Made by a program: the position numbers and the translations under genes
Part shown: positions 4,590-23,463 of the stretch, in pieces
How the letters are laid out: every line of letters starts with the position of its first letter
Position numbering within the stretch: the first letter of the stretch is position 1
The notes under the pieces: model-generated
Database searches by the model: none
What the model was told of the DNA's origin: nothing
Seen by the model: only the letters and a program-made list of their open reading frames with translations
NCBI GenBank assembly: GCA_034660135.1
Contig: JAYEIR010000165.1
Span: 16,291 to 40,290, forward strand
Length of the DNA stretch: 24,000 nucleotides
Origin: Thermodesulfobacteriota bacterium
Lineage (GTDB): Bacteria > Desulfobacterota > DSM-4660 > Desulfatiglandales > Desulfatiglandaceae
Reading direction: 5' to 3'

Positions 4590-4626
4590 CCCTCTGTCGA
4601 AGCGGAAGCCATGATTAGAATTGCTG
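4590..4626 (+). repeat. Dispersed intergenic element, copy 2 (CCCTCTGTC..GGAAGCCATGATTAGAATTGCTG)
   Basis: Same family as 1780-1823. It lies between the groEL terminator and the epimerase gene. Confidence 0.85.
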
Positions 4627-7280: not shown

Positions 7281-7470
7281 CTCAAAACCCCTTTTCTCGG
7301 CTCTTATACAGCCTGTCGAACATATTGTTATGCAAACTTTTTGACACCTATCCCTAAAAGCAAAGAGAGCTAATGTCAAGGCATTTGTCCTCGTAATTCC
7401 ACATGCTTCTGTTCGATAGCGCTTGCTTTTTAATTCCACCCGCCGCTTTATACAACACCCAAATCTTGCC

Positions 7471-7523
7471 GGCAATTCTAATTTTAACCTCTATCTAAGT
7501 GGAAGACACAATTAGAATTGCTG
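7471..7523. repeat. Complete palindromic copy of the dispersed element (copy 3)
   Basis: GCAATTCTAATT (7472-7483) is the exact reverse complement of AATTAGAATTGC (7510-7521), with a 26-nt centre. The right half matches the family-1 copies. The left half, read on the - strand (AGAGGTTAAAATTAGAATTGCC), matches the family-2 copies at 8568-8590 and 23363-23385. Confidence 0.9.
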
Positions 7524-7840: not shown

Positions 7841-7911
7841 TCCTTTCGAATTACCCTGGGCGGCGTTTCATCTGTGTATCAGGTCAGTGCTCCTTATTGT
7901 CACAATCAAAC

Positions 7912-7946
7912 AAAAAAGCCGCCCTTATTTGAAGGGCGGCTTTTTT
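7912..7946. terminator. Bidirectional rho-independent terminator between convergent ferredoxin and cytochrome genes
   Basis: AAAAAAGCCGCCCTT-ATTTG-AAGGGCGGCTTTTTT forms a perfect 15-bp stem including the A/T tracts, so U-runs are produced on both strands. Confidence 0.9.
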
Positions 7947-7976
7947 GTTTGATGAAAGTTCACTCAAAAGATCAAA

Positions 7977-8553: not shown

Positions 8554-8590
8554 AGTTAGAAAGGTCTAAAGGTTAAAATTGGAATTGCTG
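8554..8590 (+). repeat. Dispersed intergenic element, copy 4 (..TTAGAAAGGTCTAAAGGTTAAAATTGGAATTGCTG)
   Basis: It matches 23347-23385 and the minus-strand arm of 7471-7523. It sits 18 nt upstream of a -35-like box. Confidence 0.85.
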
Positions 8591-9911: not shown

Positions 9912-9926
9912 CAGCAATTCTAAAAC
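9912..9926 (-). repeat. Partial copy (copy 5) of the dispersed element core, reverse orientation
   Basis: CAGCAATTCTAA is the reverse complement of TTAGAATTGCTG (12 nt exact). It directly abuts a TTGACA box at 9927-9932. Confidence 0.6.
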
Positions 9927-10793: not shown

Positions 10794-10936
10794 AAAATGC
10801 AATTAGCTGTTAGCTATTAGCTGCATAAAATGCAATTAGTTGCCAAGCAATACAGTTGCATCAAAAAATGCAAGTTTCAATTCAGCGTAAAGTTATACAA
10901 AGACTTGTAGTCTTTAAGCTAATGGCTAAAAGCTAA
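10794..10936. repeat. Structured repeat region upstream of valS (direct AAAATGCAATTAG boxes plus 21-nt imperfect inverted repeats)
   Basis: AAAATGCAATTAG occurs at ~10795 and ~10827, with the variant AAAATGCAAGTTT at ~10865. TTAGCTGTTAGCTATTAGCTG (10803-10823) pairs with AAGCTAATGGCTAAAAGCTAA (10916-10936), complementary at 18 of 21 positions. There is also an internal hairpin AAAGACT-TGT-AGTCTTT at 10899-10915. Confidence 0.75.
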
Positions 10937-11009
10937 CCGCACAGGTAGAAAGCTGTTACAGAACTTACGACTTCAAGTCAGCAAATCTGCTTTAAGGAAT
11001 TTTATATAA

Positions 11010-13661
11010 ATGAAAAATGAAATCATGACCAAGGGTTATGAACCTAAAGATGTGGAAGATAGATTGTATGAGTACTGGGAAAAGAACAATTTGTTTGTGG
11101 CGGATGCCCGTTCTGATGATGACCCGTTTTGTATTGTGATTCCACCTCCTAATGTGACTGGTACCTTGCACATGGGGCATGCCCTGAACAATACCCTCCA
11201 GGATATTCTCTGCCGCTATAAAAGGATGAAGGGATACAATGTGCTGTGGCAACCAGGCACCGACCATGCCGGTATTGCTACGCAAAATGTTGTTGAAAAG
11301 GACCTCACTTCAAAAGGAACCGACCGCCATGCCGTAGGCCGGGAAAAATTTGTGGGGATGGTCTGGGAATGGCGGGAGAAGTACGGCGGATTGATCATCA
11401 ATCAGTTGAAGAGGTTAGGGTGTTCGTGCGATTGGACCAGGGAACGCTTTACTATGGATAAGGGTCTTTCCGAGGCAGTCAGGGAAGTTTTTGTAAGTCT
11501 GTATGAGGAAGGACTTATTTACAGGGGTGATTATATTATCAACTGGTGCCCCCGGTGTCATACGGCCCTGGCTGAACTTGAGGTGGAACATGAGGAGACA
11601 GAGAGCCACCTGTATTATATTCGCTATCCGTTTGAAAAACATGACGGCCACCTCGTAGTTGCCACCACGCGGCCCGAAACCCTGCTGGGCGATACTGCTG
11701 TGGCTGTAAACCCGGAAGATAAACGTTACAAGGATTTATCAGGAGCTAATGTGCTCTTGCCTGTTCTTAATAAGCCGATTCCTGTTATCTTTGACAAATA
11801 TGTGGATACTGAATTCGGTACAGGGGCCTTGAAGATCACGCCGGCCCATGACCCTAATGACTTTGAAATTGGTAATATCCACAAACTGGAGAGAATCAAG
11901 GTCATTGATGAAGATGGGAAAATGAATGGTCAGGCAGGACCTTATGAGGGCTTAGACAGATTTGAGTGCCGCAAACGCATCTTAGATGATCTTGACGAGG
12001 CAGGCCTGTTGGAAAAAATAGAGCCCTACCGCAATGCTATCGGCCACTGTTACCGGTGCAAGACCATGATCGAACCGCTTCTCTCAAAGCAATGGTTTGT
12101 CAAGGTTAGCCCGCTTGCCGAAGAAGCAATGCAGGCCGTTAAGGAAGGCAAGACGAGGATACACCCTGCAAACTGGGAAACAGTCTATTTTGAGTGGATG
12201 AAAAACATCAGGGACTGGTGTGTTTCGAGACAGATCTGGTGGGGACACCGTATCCCTGCCTGGTACTGCCGGGAATGTGGGGAGGTCAGTGTGGCGAAGG
12301 TGGAGCCCTCAAATTGCAAGGCGTGCCAAAGTGACAACCTTGTGCAAGAAACAGATGTCCTTGATACGTGGTTTAGTTCAGCCCTGTGGCCTTTTTCCAC
12401 GCTGGGCTGGCCCCTGTTGACCAGGGAACTCAAGACGTTCTACCCTACCTCGGCTCTTGTAACCGGTTTTGATATCCTGTTTTTCTGGGTAGCGAGGATG
12501 ATGATGATGGGCCTCCATTTCATGGGTGATGTCCCTTTTAAGGACGTCTATATCCATGCCCTGGTCAGAGATGCAGAAGGCAAGAAGATGAGCAAGTCCA
12601 AAGGAAACGTTATTGATCCCCTTGTGATAATGGACGAATTCGGAACCGACGCATTCCGCTTTACCCTGGCAGCCATGGCGGCCCAGGGCAGGGATATCAA
12701 GCTTTCCGAAGAAAGGATAACAGGCTACCGGCATTTCGTTAACAAACTTTGGAATGCAGCAAGGCTGGTTCTCATAAATCTTGATTCCAAAGGGAATCTA
12801 AAGGTGAATGAGAGGATTTACAGCCTGCCTGACCTCTGGATATTGACGCGAATCGGGCAGGTCAGCGAAGATTTCTCACGTGCCATTGATGAATATCGCT
12901 TCAATGATGCTGCCGGCCTTTGTTATGATTTTGTCTGGCACGAGTTCTGTGACTGGTATCTTGAGATGGCCAAACAGGGCCTTTATGGAGCCGACCAGAC
13001 ACTCAGGGACTCGACCATGGCCACTGCCCAGGAGGTCCTGACAGCAGCCCTGAAGCTTCTACACCCATTTATGCCTTTTGTGACAGAAGAGATCTGGCAG
13101 AAGCTACCGGAAACACGGGGCAGTATCATGACAGCCAAATTCCCTGAGCCGGCTGATTTCGCGAGTGATGAAGATTCTATAGAGAAAATGGGTCTACTGA
13201 TGGGGTGCATCACCGGAATTCGTAATATCCGTGGCGAGATGAACATATCTCCTTCGACCAGGGTCAAGGTTGTCCTTGACGTGCATCAAGAGGACGAAGC
13301 TGATGTCTTACGCGATAATCTGGGCCATATACAGGCACTTGCCAAGGCAGAAGAAATAACCATCGGTTTTGGAATACCAAAGCCCGAAGGTTCTGCATCC
13401 GTGGTGTTTGGACATAACCAGGCACATGTAGTACTAAAAGGGCTTTTGGACTTTGAGCAAGAAAGAGAAAGAATAAGAAAAGAGATCGTGAAGATTGAAA
13501 AGGACATCAGCGCTTCCAACAAAAAACTCTCTAACAAGGGGTTCCTCAAGAAGGCCCCGGCTGAAATAGTAGCCAAGGTCAGGGAAAAGGTCGAGACCCT
13601 GTCCATAAAACTGACAAAACTGAATCAGAATCTATCTTTTTTTGAGGCGATCGATGATTGA
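11010..13661 (+). CDS. valS: Valine--tRNA ligase
   Basis: The 883-aa product has the class I HIGH motif (PPPNVTGTLHMGHA), KMSKS (KKMSKSKGN), a CP1 editing-domain region and a C-terminal coiled coil. Confidence 0.98.
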   Translation: MKNEIMTKGYEPKDVEDRLYEYWEKNNLFVADARSDDDPFCIVIPPPNVTGTLHMGHALNNTLQDILCRYKRMKGYNVLWQPGTDHAGIATQNVVEKDLTSKGTDRHAVGREKFVGMVWEWREKYGGLIINQLKRLGCSCDWTRERFTMDKGLSEAVREVFVSLYEEGLIYRGDYIINWCPRCHTALAELEVEHEETESHLYYIRYPFEKHDGHLVVATTRPETLLGDTAVAVNPEDKRYKDLSGANVLLPVLNKPIPVIFDKYVDTEFGTGALKITPAHDPNDFEIGNIHKLERIKVIDEDGKMNGQAGPYEGLDRFECRKRILDDLDEAGLLEKIEPYRNAIGHCYRCKTMIEPLLSKQWFVKVSPLAEEAMQAVKEGKTRIHPANWETVYFEWMKNIRDWCVSRQIWWGHRIPAWYCRECGEVSVAKVEPSNCKACQSDNLVQETDVLDTWFSSALWPFSTLGWPLLTRELKTFYPTSALVTGFDILFFWVARMMMMGLHFMGDVPFKDVYIHALVRDAEGKKMSKSKGNVIDPLVIMDEFGTDAFRFTLAAMAAQGRDIKLSEERITGYRHFVNKLWNAARLVLINLDSKGNLKVNERIYSLPDLWILTRIGQVSEDFSRAIDEYRFNDAAGLCYDFVWHEFCDWYLEMAKQGLYGADQTLRDSTMATAQEVLTAALKLLHPFMPFVTEEIWQKLPETRGSIMTAKFPEPADFASDEDSIEKMGLLMGCITGIRNIRGEMNISPSTRVKVVLDVHQEDEADVLRDNLGHIQALAKAEEITIGFGIPKPEGSASVVFGHNQAHVVLKGLLDFEQERERIRKEIVKIEKDISASNKKLSNKGFLKKAPAEIVAKVREKVETLSIKLTKLNQNLSFFEAIDD

Positions 13662-14742: not shown

Positions 14743-16080
14743 ATGAAGTTTAGAGCTTCATTGATTCTCATATGTTCGGCCTTTTTCCTGTCTACAATTT
14801 ACCAAACGAGTGAGAGCTTTGCGCAAGGGACGAAGGTCTACACACTGGAAGACAGTATTGCAGAGGCCCTGGCAAATAACTGGTCTCTTAAGGCAAAGGA
14901 GGAAAAACTCAACGAAGCGGCCTTTGTCAAAGACCAGGCCAGGGCCGAATTCCTGCCCAAATTGAGCACGTCTTATGGTTATACCCTGTTGAGCAAAAAT
15001 TCGAGAATACTCAAAGCCAATATCCCTGGGATGGGGGATGAGCCAATCGAGGTAGCCGCCAAGAACAATTATCAGTGGAAAGGCACTGTGACCCAGCCCG
15101 TCTTTACCGGATTTGCCTTGAAAAGTTCTTATGAGCTTGCAAAACTCGGAGTTGACCAATCCCAGATGGAGCTTGATCTTGAAAGGCTTGACCTGATCTT
15201 TAGAGTCAAAGAGGCCTATTATGACATCCTGGAGGCGGATAAGGCCCTGGATGTGGCCGAGAAAGCCGTGGAATCCCTGGAATCTCATGCCAATACGGCG
15301 CGCAGTTTCTATGAAGTGGGTATGACTCCAATTAATGATCTCTTGAGGTCGGAAGTGGAGTTAGGTGACGCAAAGCAGGAGTTGGTAAAGGCTGAACACG
15401 ATGCTCGTATGGCCCGTTCCGTATTTAATACCATCTTGGCCAGACCGGTCAATGCACCTGCAGAGGTGGATGATAGACTGGTTTTTGTGCCGGAACGAGG
15501 GGATTTTCAAGATTACCTCCAAAAGGCCTTTACGAACCGCCCTGAAATGAAGCTCATGGAAATCAATATCCTTCAATCAGAGCAGCAGATAAGGCTGGCT
15601 AAAAGCAAATATTACCCGGAAGTATCGCTTCAATACGACTATATCAAGGCAGGGGATACGCCGAACGTCTCTGGCAGCGAATTTCACGAGGCAAGCAGTT
15701 GGGAGGCCGCTGCTGTCTGTTCATGGACTTTTTGGGAATGGGGAAAGACACATTACGCGGTAAAAGAGAAAGAAAGCATCAGAAAGCAACTGACCAAAAT
15801 CAAGGAAGATCTGGAGAATAAAATAAGGCTTGAATTGAAGCGGGCACTTTTAGTCCTGGAAGCGGCAGAAAAGAACATTCCCACTACAAAGAAAGCGGTT
15901 GAGCAGGGCGAGGAGAACTTACGCGTCAATGAGGAACGTTATCGTGCGCAGGTAACCACTTCCACCGAGGTCCTTGATGCCCAGAGGCTCCTGAGCCAGG
16001 CAAGAATGAACTACTACCATGCACTTTACGCCCACTACATGGCCAAGGCCGGATTGCAGTGGGCCATAGGGTCATATTAG
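14743..16080 (+). CDS. TolC-family outer-membrane efflux protein
   Basis: It has a signal peptide (MKFRASLILICSAFFLSTIYQTSESFAQ), a length of ~445 aa, two-fold repeated helical/coiled segments and a C-terminal Y..Y..A.A.L..A.G pattern typical of OEP/TolC proteins. This is a family-level call only. Confidence 0.8.
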   Translation: MKFRASLILICSAFFLSTIYQTSESFAQGTKVYTLEDSIAEALANNWSLKAKEEKLNEAAFVKDQARAEFLPKLSTSYGYTLLSKNSRILKANIPGMGDEPIEVAAKNNYQWKGTVTQPVFTGFALKSSYELAKLGVDQSQMELDLERLDLIFRVKEAYYDILEADKALDVAEKAVESLESHANTARSFYEVGMTPINDLLRSEVELGDAKQELVKAEHDARMARSVFNTILARPVNAPAEVDDRLVFVPERGDFQDYLQKAFTNRPEMKLMEINILQSEQQIRLAKSKYYPEVSLQYDYIKAGDTPNVSGSEFHEASSWEAAAVCSWTFWEWGKTHYAVKEKESIRKQLTKIKEDLENKIRLELKRALLVLEAAEKNIPTTKKAVEQGEENLRVNEERYRAQVTTSTEVLDAQRLLSQARMNYYHALYAHYMAKAGLQWAIGSY

Positions 16081-16237
16081 TACCTTATTTCCAGGTTTTC
16101 TGTCATGAAAAACAAGAAAATCTTTAACAGGTCGAGCAGTCGAGTGGCGAAGCTTGAAACTCGAAACCGGAGGTTTAAAGCCCAGAGTCCGACACCCGAC
16201 AACCAATAACTGATAACTGATAACTGATAACTGATAA
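16077..16237 (+). repeat. ~160-nt intergenic repeat, copy A (partner 23137-23286)
   Basis: It aligns end to end with copy B. There are 2 mismatches in the first 60 nt, then identical blocks of 31 and 24 nt. The only other differences are indels of whole 7-8-nt micro-repeat units. Confidence 0.95.
16207..16237 (+). repeat. TAACTGA heptamer direct repeat, 4 full units plus TAA
   Basis: TAACTGA occurs at 16207, 16214, 16221 and 16228, followed by TAA. The array ends 26 nt upstream of the ftsE ATG. Confidence 0.97.
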
Positions 16238-16263
16238 AGGTTTTTTAAGAGAATAGCATAGGA

Positions 16264-18021: not shown

Positions 18022-18053
18022 CAACCTTTGAACCTCTGAACCTTTGAACCCGT
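18022..18053 (+). repeat. Tandem 8-mer (GAACCYYT-like) x4, immediately upstream of envC
   Basis: The units are CAACCTTT, GAACCTCT, GAACCTTT and GAACCCGT at 18022-18053. The envC ATG is at 18066. Confidence 0.9.
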
Positions 18054-18065
18054 GATCGGTTACAC

Positions 18066-19292
18066 ATGTCCTTGCTTATAGATAATTGCCGCCCAACGAC
18101 TCGACTACTAAAACTGATATCAGGCCTCACCCTGATACTGTTCACCCTGCTTGCTGTCCCTTCCAATGCCGCTTCTGATGATGGATTAGAAACAAAGAAA
18201 GATCAGATAACCACAATCGAATTAAATCTCTCGACAGAAAAAGAAAAGCTTGACTCATTTGACTGTCAGGAAAAGGGGCTGATTTCCAGGTTGGCTGATT
18301 TTGAACAGGATGTAGCTGACACAAGACGCACTGTGCAGGAAATAGAGAGAAAGATCAGTCTTGCGAAGATTGCAATCAAGAATTCAAAGGCAAGGCTGGC
18401 AGATCTCAAGAAATCAAAAAAAGAAGCAGAGGCCCGGCTGGCGAGAAGGCTCGTTACATTATATAAATATGGCAGAAAGGGGCATATAAAGATCCTGCTT
18501 TATGCGGCAGACCTGGAAGAATTCTGGCACAGGATGAAATACCTCAAGGTCATTATGGCAGAAGATCAGGAAGAGCTATTCAGGCTGAGCAAAGAAGAAA
18601 GCCGGTACAGAGAGGAGATTTCGCGGGTCAAAGACCAGCTCTCTGAAGACGAGGCTATTAAGAACAAAGAAAATGTGCGACTGATATCTCTACGAAAAGA
18701 GCTTGAAAAAAAAGTCATTCGTCTCATGAAAATCCATAAAGAAAAGGAATTCTATGAGACATCAGTGAAAGAACTGGGGCTGGCAAGCCAAAACCTCAAG
18801 CAAGCCCTTGCAAAAATTGAAAAAAAGGACGATTATAGAGTTATACTTCCTTCTTGTTTTGCAGACTCCAAAGGCCGATTACCTTTTCCGGTCAAAGGGA
18901 GGGCAATTAGGCCTGATGAACTTTCTGCGTTTGCGAGGTTGGGTCTTCACAAAGGTATCTTTATTGATGGCACATCTGACGCCGGAGTAAAGGCCATTTT
19001 TCCGGGAAGAGTCGATTTCTCAGGACATCTCAAGGGCTATGGACAGATTATAATAATTAATCACGGTTCACGCTTTTTTACCATTTCAGCACTCCTCTCC
19101 GAAAGAAAGAAGAAAAAGGGAGATATGGTGAAAGCTGGAACAGTGATCGGATTGGCAGGTGGAAATAGACCTGCAAAAAGACAAATGCTCTATTTTGAAA
19201 TCAGAAGAGGCGGGGAAAACCTGGATCCTTTAGCGTGGATAGAGGTACATAGTCCACAGGGTAAGTGCTCCCTCCCGACAACCAAGAACTAA
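18066..19292 (+). CDS. envC: EnvC-like murein hydrolase activator (coiled coil plus degenerate M23/LytM domain)
   Basis: It has a signal peptide and a long coiled-coil region. The C-terminal LytM-like domain (HKGIFIDGTSDAGVKAIFPGRV, GYGQIIIINHG, MLYFEIRRGGENLDPLAWI) resembles E. coli EnvC as I recall it (SLYFEIRRQGQAVNP). The catalytic HxH motif is replaced by LYF. It lies downstream of ftsEX. Confidence 0.78.
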   Translation: MSLLIDNCRPTTRLLKLISGLTLILFTLLAVPSNAASDDGLETKKDQITTIELNLSTEKEKLDSFDCQEKGLISRLADFEQDVADTRRTVQEIERKISLAKIAIKNSKARLADLKKSKKEAEARLARRLVTLYKYGRKGHIKILLYAADLEEFWHRMKYLKVIMAEDQEELFRLSKEESRYREEISRVKDQLSEDEAIKNKENVRLISLRKELEKKVIRLMKIHKEKEFYETSVKELGLASQNLKQALAKIEKKDDYRVILPSCFADSKGRLPFPVKGRAIRPDELSAFARLGLHKGIFIDGTSDAGVKAIFPGRVDFSGHLKGYGQIIIINHGSRFFTISALLSERKKKKGDMVKAGTVIGLAGGNRPAKRQMLYFEIRRGGENLDPLAWIEVHSPQGKCSLPTTKN

Positions 19293-19309
19293 TAACACAG
19301 GAATTCATA

Positions 19310-20470
19310 GTGAACAATGACAACATACATAATCTTGTATTGGGTGACAAGGAAATCACCCTCATAGGCACGGCTCATGTGTCTAAAGAAAGCGCCGATC
19401 TGGTGAACAAGGTTATCGGAGATGAAAAGCCGGACACAGTATGCATCGAACTCTGCCAGTCCAGATACCAGTCTATGACGCAACAAAACAAATGGCAGGA
19501 TACAGATCTAATTAAGGTCATTAAAGAAAAAAAATCGTTTTTGCTCCTCTCAAACCTTATGCTTGCATCTTTCCAGAATAGGATCGGTAGGAAACTGGGC
19601 ATCAAGCCCGGAGAGGAAATCAGGCAGGCCATACAGGCAGCCAAGTCAGTTGGTGCCGATATACACGTGTCGGACAGGGATATTCGTACCACCTTGTCAA
19701 GGACTTGGAGGCTGATGGGCCTTTGGACAAAGATCAAATTAATAGCCCAGTTAGTTGTTTCCATGGGACAAGTTGACACCATTGAGGAAGAGGATATCGA
19801 GAAAATGAAACAAAGCGATATCCTTGACACCCTGCTCGCAGAAATCGGGGAAAAGCTCCCCGAACTCCGGCGCATCCTGATCGACGAAAGAGATCAGTAC
19901 CTTGCTTACAAAATCAGGACTGCCCCCGGGAAAAAGATAGTCGCAGTGGTAGGGGCCGGACATGTTCCCGGGATTGAGAAATACTGGAGAGAACCTGTGG
20001 ACCTGAACGCCCTGGAAGAAATCCCTCCAAAAAGCAGGTTTTCCGGTTTCTTTAAGTGGGGCATCCCAACTGTCGTCATAGGGTTGATTATCCTGGGTTT
20101 TTTTATGGCTGGTGCATCTGCCGGCACACATATGATCAAGTGGTGGGTACTCGCCAATGCGGTCTTCGCCGGGCTTGGTGCGGCAATTGCAATGGCCCAT
20201 CCCCTCACGGTCCTGTCTGCCGTGGTGGCATCACCCTTGACATCTCTCAATCCCATGATAGCGGCCGGCTGGGTCTCCGGACTGACAGAAACCCTTCTAA
20301 GAAAACCAAAAGTAAAGGATTTTGAGAATCTCCCCCAGGACATCTCAACTGTAAAAGGGTTTTGGAAAAATAAGATAACACGGATATTGCTCATTGTGGT
20401 ATTTACAAACATTGGCAGTTCCCTTGGAGCTTTTGTGGCCATACCCCTGATGGCCAGGGTATTTACATAA
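19310..20470 (+). CDS. TraB/PrgY-family protein with a C-terminal membrane domain
   Basis: It contains ITLIGTAHVSKES, IDERDQYLAYKI and AVVGAGHVPGIEKY, followed by ~4 hydrophobic segments. The start is uncertain. I chose the in-frame GTG at 19310, just after the envC stop, whereas the ORF-track start at 19265 is a GTG inside envC. Confidence 0.72.
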   Translation: MNNDNIHNLVLGDKEITLIGTAHVSKESADLVNKVIGDEKPDTVCIELCQSRYQSMTQQNKWQDTDLIKVIKEKKSFLLLSNLMLASFQNRIGRKLGIKPGEEIRQAIQAAKSVGADIHVSDRDIRTTLSRTWRLMGLWTKIKLIAQLVVSMGQVDTIEEEDIEKMKQSDILDTLLAEIGEKLPELRRILIDERDQYLAYKIRTAPGKKIVAVVGAGHVPGIEKYWREPVDLNALEEIPPKSRFSGFFKWGIPTVVIGLIILGFFMAGASAGTHMIKWWVLANAVFAGLGAAIAMAHPLTVLSAVVASPLTSLNPMIAAGWVSGLTETLLRKPKVKDFENLPQDISTVKGFWKNKITRILLIVVFTNIGSSLGAFVAIPLMARVFT

Positions 20471-20495: not shown

Positions 20496-21146
20496 ATGGA
20501 AAAAGTCGAAGTCAAGTTCGGTGAGTGGATTGAAGCGGGATTTAACCTGTATAAAGACAACTTCGGGACCCTGGTCTTGGCCTCCCTTATTGCCTGGGTA
20601 CTCAGTGTCGCGACCTTTGGCATCCTTGCCGGCCCCATGTTTGCCGGTCTTCTGCTGATTACCCTGGCACTGTTCGACAAAAAGGAACCAAAGCCGGAGT
20701 TCAAAGAGGTCTTTGACGGCTTTAATTATTTTCTCAATTCTTTTCTCTTCATTATTGTATGGGGACTCGCGCTTCTCGTTGTATCGTTTCTTCTTGCCCT
20801 GGTGCCCTGTATCGGCCAAATCGCAGCGATCCTGCTGGTCTATGTGGCCCAGGCCTTTCTGATGTTCGGGCTATTTCTTATAGTGGATAGACAGATGGAG
20901 TTCTGGCCGGCCTCCATGGAGAGTTTTAATAAGGTCAAGACCAATTTATGGCCTTTCCTGGGGCTGTCTGTCATATCAAGTATTATCGGCTGGATCGGGT
21001 CAATCGCATGCGGAATTGGCGTGGTTGTCACCGGCCCCATATATGCGTGCATACTGACTGTGGCCTACCGTGAAGTATTCGGTCAGGTCGTGAGGCCACC
21101 CATAGATGTAACAACCAGCGCTGATAATAGTGCACAGACAAATTAA
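20496..21146 (+). CDS. Hypothetical polytopic membrane protein (216 aa)
   Basis: AAGGAGGG lies upstream of the ATG. The protein has 5-6 hydrophobic segments, and I recognise no family. Confidence 0.65.
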   Translation: MEKVEVKFGEWIEAGFNLYKDNFGTLVLASLIAWVLSVATFGILAGPMFAGLLLITLALFDKKEPKPEFKEVFDGFNYFLNSFLFIIVWGLALLVVSFLLALVPCIGQIAAILLVYVAQAFLMFGLFLIVDRQMEFWPASMESFNKVKTNLWPFLGLSVISSIIGWIGSIACGIGVVVTGPIYACILTVAYREVFGQVVRPPIDVTTSADNSAQTN

Positions 21147-21179
21147 GTAGTGTCCGTCCAGAAATGAGATAGTTTTCGC

Positions 21180-21275
21180 AAGGTCAAGGAAAATGAGGAT
21201 TTTAACCACAGGAATATATTGAATATTTCGAGGATTAAAATCCGAATCTAACACAGAGATTGCGGAAAATAGCCA
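21180..21275 (+). repeat. ~95-nt repeat element (family C), copy B
   Basis: It aligns with 2635-2730. It contains a perfect 9-bp inverted repeat, GGATTTTAA (21198-21206) and TTAAAATCC (21234-21242). Confidence 0.8.
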
Positions 21276-21285
21276 TTTATGGATG

Positions 21286-21443
21286 GGCACTAAGTAGTCT
21301 CTGAACGAAAACCTCGAAATGAAAACGAACACAACATCAATCATGAGGCTTTACTGAGTTGGGATTGATTCCATTAATCCAAAACCTAAAATCCAAAATC
21401 CAAAATCGTGCCTGAACAGGGTTTTCGTTCAGGCACTAAGTAG
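21286..21443. mobile_element. MITE-like unit: 132-nt core with 13-bp terminal inverted repeats flanked by 12-nt direct repeats
   Basis: The direct repeat GGCACTAAGTAG lies at 21286-21297 and 21432-21443. The inverted repeats are CTGAACGAAAACC (21301-21313) and GGTTTTCGTTCAG (21420-21432). No ORF is present. The right end also folds on itself as GTGCCTGAAC-AGGGTTTTC-GTTCAGGCAC (21408-21436). Confidence 0.5.
21381..21408 (+). repeat. Tandem heptamer AAAATCC-like x4 (AAAACCT, AAAATCC, AAAATCC, AAAATCG)
   Basis: This is a direct reading. The array lies inside the MITE-like unit, 45 nt upstream of the DUF2752 gene ATG. Confidence 0.9.
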
Positions 21444-23090: not shown

Positions 23091-23136
23091 ATTTTCGATT
23101 CAAAGCAAACAGGAAAAAGAGACCCCTCTGTTACTG

Positions 23137-23286
23137 TTAGCACCTTATTTCCAAGTTTTCTGTCATGAAAAACAAGAAAATCTTTAACAGGTCGAGTAAT
23201 CGAGCAGTCGAGTGGCGAAGCTTGAAACTCGAAACTGGAGGTTTAAAGCCCAGAGTCCGATAACCAATAACTGATAACTGATAACC
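23137..23286 (+). repeat. ~150-nt intergenic repeat, copy B (partner 16077-16237), ending in TAACTGA x2 plus TAACC
   Basis: See copy A. TAACTGA lies at 23268 and 23275. The array is followed by the palindrome CCGTTAACGG at 23285-23294. Confidence 0.95.
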
Positions 23287-23346
23287 GTTAACGGCCTTCA
23301 GCGTATTTTAGCTTGTCTTAGGCACTACTCTGGGTTGCGTATGGCC

Positions 23347-23385
23347 CACCTTAGTAAGGGCTAAAGGTTAAAATTAGAATTGCTG
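23347..23385 (+). repeat. Dispersed intergenic element, copy 6 (CCACCTTAGTAAGGGCTAAAGGTTAAAATTAGAATTGCTG)
   Basis: It matches 8554-8590 and the minus-strand arm of 7471-7523. It lies 79 nt upstream of the orn start. Confidence 0.85.
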
Positions 23386-23463
23386 TGAAACCTGTATTTC
23401 ACTGGCAAATCAGTTTACCTTTATGCTATATTTAAAGTTTTCAATACATACAAGGAGAATATC

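Follow-up and report, generated by a model that had tools for sequence, protein, structure and literature searches.

A stretch of 24,000 nt from an uncultured, sulfate-reducer-type Thermodesulfobacteriota bacterium of a brine metagenome (contig JAYEIR010000165.1; hereafter the window) contains two near-identical copies of a non-coding element, one (copy A) between a gene for a TolC-like protein and ftsE, and the other (copy B) upstream of orn. Each copy is a modular intergenic spacer with a head of ~55 nt, a decayed array of 7- and 8-nt units spanning ~75 nt, and a tail of TAACTGA units. We consider it probable that this is a slippage-prone heptamer-repeat spacer native to the tolC-ftsE region, which was recently copied upstream of orn and is a candidate leader lacking a Shine-Dalgarno (SD) sequence. 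Copies within the organism's genome were counted in the 24-kb window, and 1.9 Mb of loci from relatives were gathered for comparison.

Copy A (16077-16237) and copy B (23137-23286) have the same orientation, and their alignment over the full length has 138 matches and 4 mismatches (97.2%); the gaps are of 8, 7 and about 12-14 nt, such that the length differences correspond to whole 7- or 8-nt units. A blastn comparison gives 87.8% identity over 156 columns (E about 1e-43 to 1e-45), far above chance. The first 60 nt differ at two positions, 16081 (T/C) and 16094 (G/A), and further on an identical block of 31 nt is followed by a C/T difference at 16167 and then by an identical block of 24 nt. 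Copy B has an extra 8-mer before the 31-nt block (TAATCGAG or TCGAGTAA, depending on the register), and copy A has an extra 7-mer, CACCCGA. The 5' end of copy A is the TAG stop codon of the OEP/TolC-like gene (14743-16080) and its 3' end is 26 nt before the ftsE ATG (16264), whereas copy B is inside the 373-nt gap (23091-23463) between a divergent membrane-protein gene and orn. An original prediction, made from the letters of the window, had described this alignment with its indels, unit counts and gene context, and direct reading and alignment bear it out in every detail. The component parts are as follows.

Copy A head, 16077-16129, plus strand: begins TTAG, of which TAG is the TolC-like stop codon; contains an AU-rich hairpin, GGTTTTCTGT...ACAAGAAAATC; two differences from the copy B head
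Copy A body, 16130-16206, plus strand: GGTCGAG CAGTCGAG TGGCGAAG CTTGAAA CTCGAAA CCGGAGG TTTAAAG CCCAGAG TCCGACA CCCGACA ACCAATA
Copy A tail, 16207-16237, plus strand: four TAACTGA units (16207-16234) and then TAA, directed toward ftsE; Tandem Repeats Finder reports period 7, 4.6 copies and 100% matches, and a regular-expression search agrees
ftsE-proximal leader, 16238-16263, plus strand: the 26 nt that separate the element from the ftsE ATG; native, and lacking a usable SD core
Copy B head, 23137-23189, plus strand: 56 nt past the ATG (23081) that probably starts the divergent membrane-protein gene
Copy B body, 23190-23267, plus strand: longer than the copy A body by one 8-nt unit (GGTCGAG TAATCGAG CAGTCGAG) and shorter by one 7-nt unit
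Copy B tail, 23268-23292, plus strand: two TAACTGA units (23268-23281), then TAACCGT TAAC; 171 nt upstream of the orn start (23464)
Third, partial tail module, 19274-19296, plus strand: CCCGACAACCAAGAACTAATAAC, with two mismatches to 16195-16217

The body is an old, decayed tandem array. Self-similarity of the copy A body (16131-16205) relative to shuffles is evident at a lag of 7 (z = 3.9) and at a lag of 8 (z = 2.1), and the copy B body has a lag-7 z of 2.5, in keeping with the earlier proposal that the unit is a concatenation of short tandem-repeat modules. Short-period self-similarity is absent from the 5' 54 nt, corresponding to the head, in the lag-7 test. The partial module at 19274-19296 overlaps the M23 peptidase stop codon (19292) and is 14 nt before the traB start at 19310 (a Logan gene call); when up to three mismatches were allowed, 100 shuffles of the window gave 0 matches to it.

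Repeat-unit variation and the relationship of the two copies

The arrays gain and lose whole units between the two copies, within a population, and between close species, as is expected of replication slippage. Copies A and B themselves differ by 4 substitutions as against 3-4 whole-unit indels. Runs SRR26901925, SRR26901929 and SRR26901930 contain Logan contigs with 100% identity to the window, and PMC13172421 lists a neighbouring run of that set, SRR26901926 (PRJNA1042791), among brine metagenomes. One Logan contig (L001) is the same as the window over 1.76 kb except in the tail of copy A, which reads TAACTGA TAACCGT TAACTGA in place of four TAACTGA units; the variable-number tandem-repeat behaviour suggested for the element is thus real. 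Because the TAACCGT unit of this allele is also present in copy B, the four perfect units in the window look like a homogenised derivative. In the close relative L167 (FtsE 97% identical in amino acids and 95.2% in DNA) the element is at the same place, with the units TCCGACG CCCGACA CCCAATA AACAATA followed by ACTGATA twice.

Recent duplication or gene conversion has made, or keeps, copies A and B near-identical, as the original prediction had offered to account for their similarity. The two copies (97.2%) are more alike than are copy A of the window and copy A of L167 (94.0%), and this in turn exceeds the identity of ftsE third codon positions between the window and L167 (91.3%). Since identity between A and B is above that of the orthologous A copies, A and B were duplicated or homogenised after the split from L167.

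Two other interpretations of the paired copies were tried and rejected. Copies A and B do not behave as attL and attR of a 7-kb island, as the interval holds ftsEX, the M23 peptidase gene and other core genes, and no integrase. A third copy was also sought in the positions of contig ends, in that left contigs stop at 16104 or 16107, as compared with ~16124 expected from A and B alone; this carries little weight, since the organism's contigs end outside repeats as well.

TAACTGA tails and the ftsE leader

All six plus-strand occurrences of TAACTGA in the window are within the two elements, and no TAACTGA doublets are found in the 1.9 Mb of relatives' loci. When the unit was compared with plasmids by BLAST, the tail alone gave matches, to arrays in Microcystis, Nostoc, Planktothrix and Bernardetia. 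TAACTGA direct repeats were described by MacGregor in 2015 (Front Microbiol 6:1397; PMC4679880), with 169 sets of 2-6 units in Ca. Maribeggiatoa that are mostly intergenic, directed toward a start codon, and usually without a ribosome-binding site. The same account includes 'split' sets holding a related 7-mer, 7-nt indels that separate Cyanothece strains, contigs ending in TAACTGA repeats and, in Elizabethkingia (E. anophelis), intergenic regions that are nearly identical and hold larger assemblages of heptamers. The reported range comprises Beggiatoaceae, Thiocystis, 15 cyanobacteria and 5 Bacteroidetes, and Desulfobacterota or Deltaproteobacteria are absent from that account; the distance from tail to start codon is most commonly 1 nt in Ca. 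Maribeggiatoa, and is 1-214 nt in Microcystis (PMC4679880).

Judged by sequence, location, orientation, split sets and 7-nt indels, the tails in the window belong to this class. The units are exact TAACTGA repeats arranged head to tail, four in copy A and two in copy B; they are intergenic and run forward toward ftsE (26-29 nt) and orn (171-182 nt). Split sets with TAACCGT are present in the L001 allele and in copy B, L167 has a different unit count, the indels are in 7-nt steps, and the repeats sit inside larger heptamer assemblages in near-identical intergenic regions with assembly breaks in the repeats. The correspondence with downstream genes lacking a ribosome-binding site is partial, as ftsE has no SD core at a spacing of 3-11 nt (16244-16263), but orn has AAGGAG and traB has an SD. 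The window also differs from the published cases in its Thermodesulfobacteriota host, in distances that are above the 1-nt mode although within the Microcystis range, in the conserved, non-repetitive 55-nt head attached to the repeats, and in the arrays that related heptamers (YAACNNR) form at the ftsE locus in relatives, such arrays of related heptamers being rare in Ca. Maribeggiatoa.

In Nostoc PCC 7120, contiguous heptamers near start codons or promoters affect expression, and an unidentified binding partner acting on transcription or translation has been proposed (bioRxiv 10.1101/2022.06.06.494920). The repeats here are likewise tandem intergenic heptamers close to start codons, but the Nostoc units are TTTTGAA and GAC(C/T)AAT, the phylum is another one, and a head module is not described there. 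Mazel et al. in 1990 reportedly recognised contiguous heptamer repeats of cyanobacteria as a class, STRR. On the Microcystis aeruginosa FD4 plasmid (NZ_CP046974.1, 12800-13145; L166), an array of eleven CTGATAA units directly follows a gene for an IS630-family transposase; it ends ...GGTAACCGTT (longer: ...CTGGTAACCGTT), similar to the end of copy B, ...GATAACCGTT (longer: ...CTGATAACCGTTAAC). Some unrelated loci among those compared are rich in perfect heptamer arrays of at least 3 units (L060, a Nitrospiraceae metagenome-assembled genome (MAG), and L078, L028, L076 and L023); L060 has five such arrays in 22 kb, and in L023 (Geobacteraceae) five AACCTTG units stand just after valS.

The order of the tolC-like, ftsE, ftsX and M23 peptidase genes is kept in 65 of 80 metagenomic relatives, with tolC-ftsE spacers from 3 to 372 nt; where the gap is only 3 nt the junction reads TAAATG or TAGATG. 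Phased heptamers are found upstream of ftsE in distant relatives, with the sequences CAACCCG CAACGCG TAACCAG TAACGTG (L171), CAACAGA CAACAGA CGACCGG CAACGGA (L150), and CAACAGG CAACCGA CAACGGA (L142/L143). Phased YAACNNR pairs number 12 compared with 0.05 expected, and 8 compared with 0.04 without the window and L167. Significant periodicity of 6-9 nt is seen in 6 of 40 intergenic regions among the relatives' spacers. Because YAAC-type heptamer arrays recur just upstream of ftsE in several distant relatives, we infer that copy A is the original, and that the tolC-ftsE spacer is probably the native home of the array, with copy B and the fragment at 19274 being secondary.

The ftsE leader itself has a consistent property, in that none of 45 distinct relatives' ftsE leaders has an SD core, as compared with 40 of 43 tolC leaders in the same loci. 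The predicted fold of the window's leader is -8.7 kcal/mol over 93 nt, and the centroid is essentially open. In the ftsE mRNA leader, the low-structure array rich in A, C and U would probably provide a platform for SD-independent ribosome loading or for protein binding. Copy B may have no role at orn, and the head could be a 3'-end hairpin of an mRNA or a recognition end used in copying.

Several observations weigh against a native, slippage-prone spacer with a role as a leader. The element diverges from its L167 ortholog at an approximately neutral rate (94% as against 91% at third codon positions, in a small sample). The closest element-free relatives, L085 (TolC-like 92%) and L168 (FtsE 94%), have a spacer without head and tail, and in L168 only the last ~22 nt upstream of ftsE are homologous to the end of the window's 26-nt leader; since these spacers are empty, the full element may be a recent arrival at tolC-ftsE and not ancestral. 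Exact-pattern scans gave no match to a 22-mer in genome contigs, to a 28-mer in metagenome contigs, or to 19- and 21-mers in viral contigs. The YAACNNR pattern was picked post hoc, after the sequences had been seen, and most relatives' ftsE leaders have no array. The leader is not unusually unstructured for its composition (z = 0.1 relative to its own shuffles), and 171 nt separate copy B from orn, a gene with a good SD; traB has an SD as well. Finally, slippage does not explain the conservation of the head across distant genera, which is considered below. A degenerate head pattern was also run against viral contigs, and its one match, inside a phage coding region, was set aside as chance.

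A more far-reaching version of this interpretation is a long shot. It would hold that phased YAACNGA-type arrays, of which TAACTGA is one homogenised form, are a conserved signal for SD-independent translation initiation or regulator binding, read by a dedicated single-strand nucleic-acid-binding protein; that the signal is ancient at the Desulfobacterota ftsEX leader and forms a single system with the TAACTGA networks of Beggiatoaceae, cyanobacteria and Bacteroidetes; and that a cassette of head plus array carries it to new genes.

TAACTGA repeats have a strangely patchy occurrence across Beggiatoaceae, cyanobacteria and a few Bacteroidetes, unexplained in function and in route of spread. With the window they extend to a fourth lineage, a brine Thermodesulfobacteriota unrelated to the others, and there is direct evidence of unit turnover within a population and evidence of concerted evolution or recent copying of a whole spacer. 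The window also provides a comparative anchor, in that the ftsE leader, without an SD core in all relatives examined, has related phased heptamers in distant ones, and is a concrete, conserved locus at which a translational-leader hypothesis can be tested. Even if the arrays prove to be neutral microsatellites, they are a record of the way in which modular intergenic spacers are assembled and copied.

Conserved heads and alternative explanations

A profile of the head, used with nhmmer, matches two distant Desulfobacterota contigs over ~45-60 nt: L105 at 7313-7379 (E = 8e-16), and L045, a Desulforhopalus MAG, at 10962-11024 (1e-13) and 11412-11443 (0.02). The L105 head directly follows the stop codon of a tolC-like gene, and the spacer also has the units CTGAAAC CCGAAAC GTGAAAC as well as CCGATA units. 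Of the two L045 heads, 10962-11024 is directly after the nadC stop codon and 11412-11443 is at the contig end. Between them, at 11030-11300, are tandem-like units of ~27-30 nt (CCYYTCAAGGGG...ATTGAAAAG), a different repeat body on a similar head.

The strongest case for a module that is mobile, or functional in some other way, comes from the conservation of the head across genera. One such explanation is that the element is a non-autonomous mobile element resembling a miniature inverted-repeat transposable element, a repetitive extragenic palindrome (REP) or an IS200/IS605-PATE element, with the head as an end recognised by a transposase acting in trans, insertion 3' of TTAG or TTAA, and the arrays as passengers or the product of growth after insertion. 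All of the heads begin with, or follow, TTAG or TTAA, and insertion immediately 3' of these tetramers would account for how often the element abuts a stop codon. The head is ~80% identical where the TolC-like and ValRS proteins are only 56-57% identical, and its contexts vary: it follows tolC in the window and in L105, and nadC in L045, a contig on which it is found twice within 450 nt. There is an AU-rich subterminal hairpin, albeit a weak one, ~17 nt from the left boundary, and the orthologous spacer is empty in the 92-94% relatives L085 and L168 and filled in L167.

Contigs L082-84, L001, L167 and L045 end inside the head or the element, but Logan contigs break at non-repeat positions too, so the evidence from breaks is weak. 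Neither terminal inverted repeats, a target-site duplication nor a defined right end was found in the copies, the right boundary dissolving into the array, and the window has no transposase gene. The element is present as two full copies and one fragment in 24 kb, and beyond L105, L045 and L167 there is none in the relatives' loci; moreover, heptamer arrays are found upstream of ftsE in relatives that lack any head. Given that inverted ends, target duplications and a transposase were not found, we rank mobility second to the native, slippage-prone spacer, and regard it as unlikely.

Pneumococcal BOX elements (boxA-boxB(n)-boxC), enterobacterial REP/BIME sequences and Neisseria Correia elements are modular intergenic repeats with strong palindromes or terminal inverted repeats, present in tens to hundreds of copies. 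The element shares with these its short non-coding intergenic modules, one of them variable in tandem number, and its frequent position right after stop codons. It differs in that no inverted ends or stable conserved hairpin were found, in the 2-3 copies seen in the window, and in the size of the variable module, which is 7-8 nt here and 45 nt in BOX.

Another proposal is that a single local segmental duplication placed the tolC-ftsE spacer at a second site 7 kb away, with neither a family nor a function, and with the variation being neutral microsatellite noise. This accommodates the two full copies, which are the only ones seen, close together, on the same strand and 97% identical, as well as the near-neutral divergence from the ortholog and the lack of exact matches in the genome, metagenome and viral collections scanned. 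Against it are the third tail fragment at 19274, the heads in L105 and L045, the retention of the element in the L167 lineage, the recurrence of YAAC heptamer arrays at the same leader in distant relatives, and the orientation of TAACTGA arrays toward start codons as in the published cases; we consider it distinctly unlikely.

Unit-number polymorphism in one natural population, with the sequence otherwise identical, would also be expected of a contingency (phase-variable) locus at which the number of heptamers in a promoter or 5' untranslated region switches or tunes ftsEX, and orn, within the population. Intergenic simple-sequence repeats act in this way in Haemophilus (PMC12721329), and what is common to H. 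influenzae and the window is a short tandem repeat in a 5' region whose unit number varies within a population. In contrast, ftsEX and orn are housekeeping genes and not surface or restriction-modification genes, and no evidence was found for an effect of repeat number on promoter spacing or RNA processing. The array is not flanked by promoter hexamers, so that an effect of spacing is not apparent, and the last array unit is at a fixed distance from the ATG whatever the copy number. Phase variation is accordingly a very unlikely explanation.

We regard as highly improbable a structured small RNA or riboswitch-like cis-regulatory RNA present as two paralogous copies, and the independent small RNA considered in the original prediction is not supported. 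The intergenic location fits, and the minus strand of copy A forms a long imperfect hairpin (-38.5 kcal/mol, z = -2.2), but the indels in copy B destroy it (z = -0.4); fold z-scores of the copies are weak, ranging from -0.4 to -2.2, and the structure is not common to both. There is no Rfam family at the gathering score or at E <= 10, RNAalifold of four heads gives -1.5 kcal/mol with 0 compensatory pairs, and hence no covariation, and no sigma-70 promoter or terminator consensus is present. Candidate sigma-54, sigma-28, extracytoplasmic-function and sigma-70 promoters in the head and body, examined by eye, have wrong spacing or lack key bases, and a consensus scan returned none.

A small protein gene, either a 34-amino-acid plus-strand open reading frame (ORF) or a minus-strand micro-ORF in the head (MTENLEIRY), can be practically dismissed: the plus-strand ORF has an ATG in both copies but is frameshifted between them, as predicted, and its ATG reads CAC in the L105 and L045 heads, such that conservation is indeed of nucleotides and not of protein; no homolog of the translated unit is found among 5.8 billion proteins; and the 9-codon micro-ORF, although it keeps an ATG or GTG start and has several synonymous-type differences among A, B, L105 and L045 (read by eye), has neither an SD nor a consistent downstream gene, with 6 amino acids in the second L045 head (L045b) and read-through in the first (L045a). 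The micro-ORF (ATG ACA GAA AAC CTG GAA ATA AGG TAC TAA) is on the minus strand at 16077-16106 and 23137-23166, at L105 7317-7346, and at L045 10967-10995 and 11414-11443, with the codon variants CTG/TTG/CTA, GAA/GAG and AAC/AAT; the small sample and inconsistent downstream context make it probably a coincidence.

Genomic setting and other repeats in the window

The window begins with the end of the 23S rRNA gene and the 5S rRNA gene, followed by groES/EL, valS, nadC, the tolC-like gene, ftsE, ftsX, the M23 peptidase gene, a traB-like gene, a DUF2752 gene and orn. Among GTDB representative genomes the closest ValRS is that of a Ca. Desulfacyla MAG (74% identity), with other Desulfobacterales-type MAGs next; these genomes are too distant, and synteny with the window is lost in their ValRS-anchored loci. 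For the flank of copy B, Logan look-ups with the membrane-protein gene (three alternative starts) and with the DUF2752 gene returned no contig.

The motif AATTAGAATTGCTG is present at seven intergenic sites, compared with 0.35 expected: 1810-1823, 4613-4626, 7470-7483 (minus strand), 7510-7523, 8577-8590, 9912-9925 (minus strand) and 23372-23385. Subfamilies consist of three 50-nt copies (1774, 4577 and 7474) and two 36-nt copies with 92% identity (8556 and 23351). One inverted pair is in a divergent intergenic region, and one site abuts a TTGACA-N17-TATAAT promoter. A further copy is in the nadC-tolC spacer of L085 (2853-2902) and not in that of the window. These sites may bind a regulator, or may constitute a further small repeat family.

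An intergenic repeat family of ~80 nt is represented at 2634-2713 and 21179-21257, with 77-90% identity in blocks. The first copy is inside an unusually long groES-groEL spacer of 240 nt, and the second follows a gene at 20496-21146; two Logan contigs end exactly at 21179.

Other tandem arrays are 4.6 copies of AGTTTATTG at 765-805 in the 23S-5S spacer, three TTAGCTG units in non-coding DNA at 10803-10823, 3.5 copies of AACCTTTG at 18023-18050 ending 15 nt before the M23 start, and 4.6 copies of AATCCAA at 21376-21407 upstream of the DUF2752 gene. In L167 the AACCTTTG array is shorter by about two units, and the spacer between ftsX and the M23 gene is ~40 nt long, as compared with 237 nt in the window. 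Between convergent genes, at 7905-7953, a perfect 22-bp inverted repeat (AAAAAAGCCGCCCTT / AAGGGCGGCTTTTTT) has the appearance of an ordinary bidirectional terminator.

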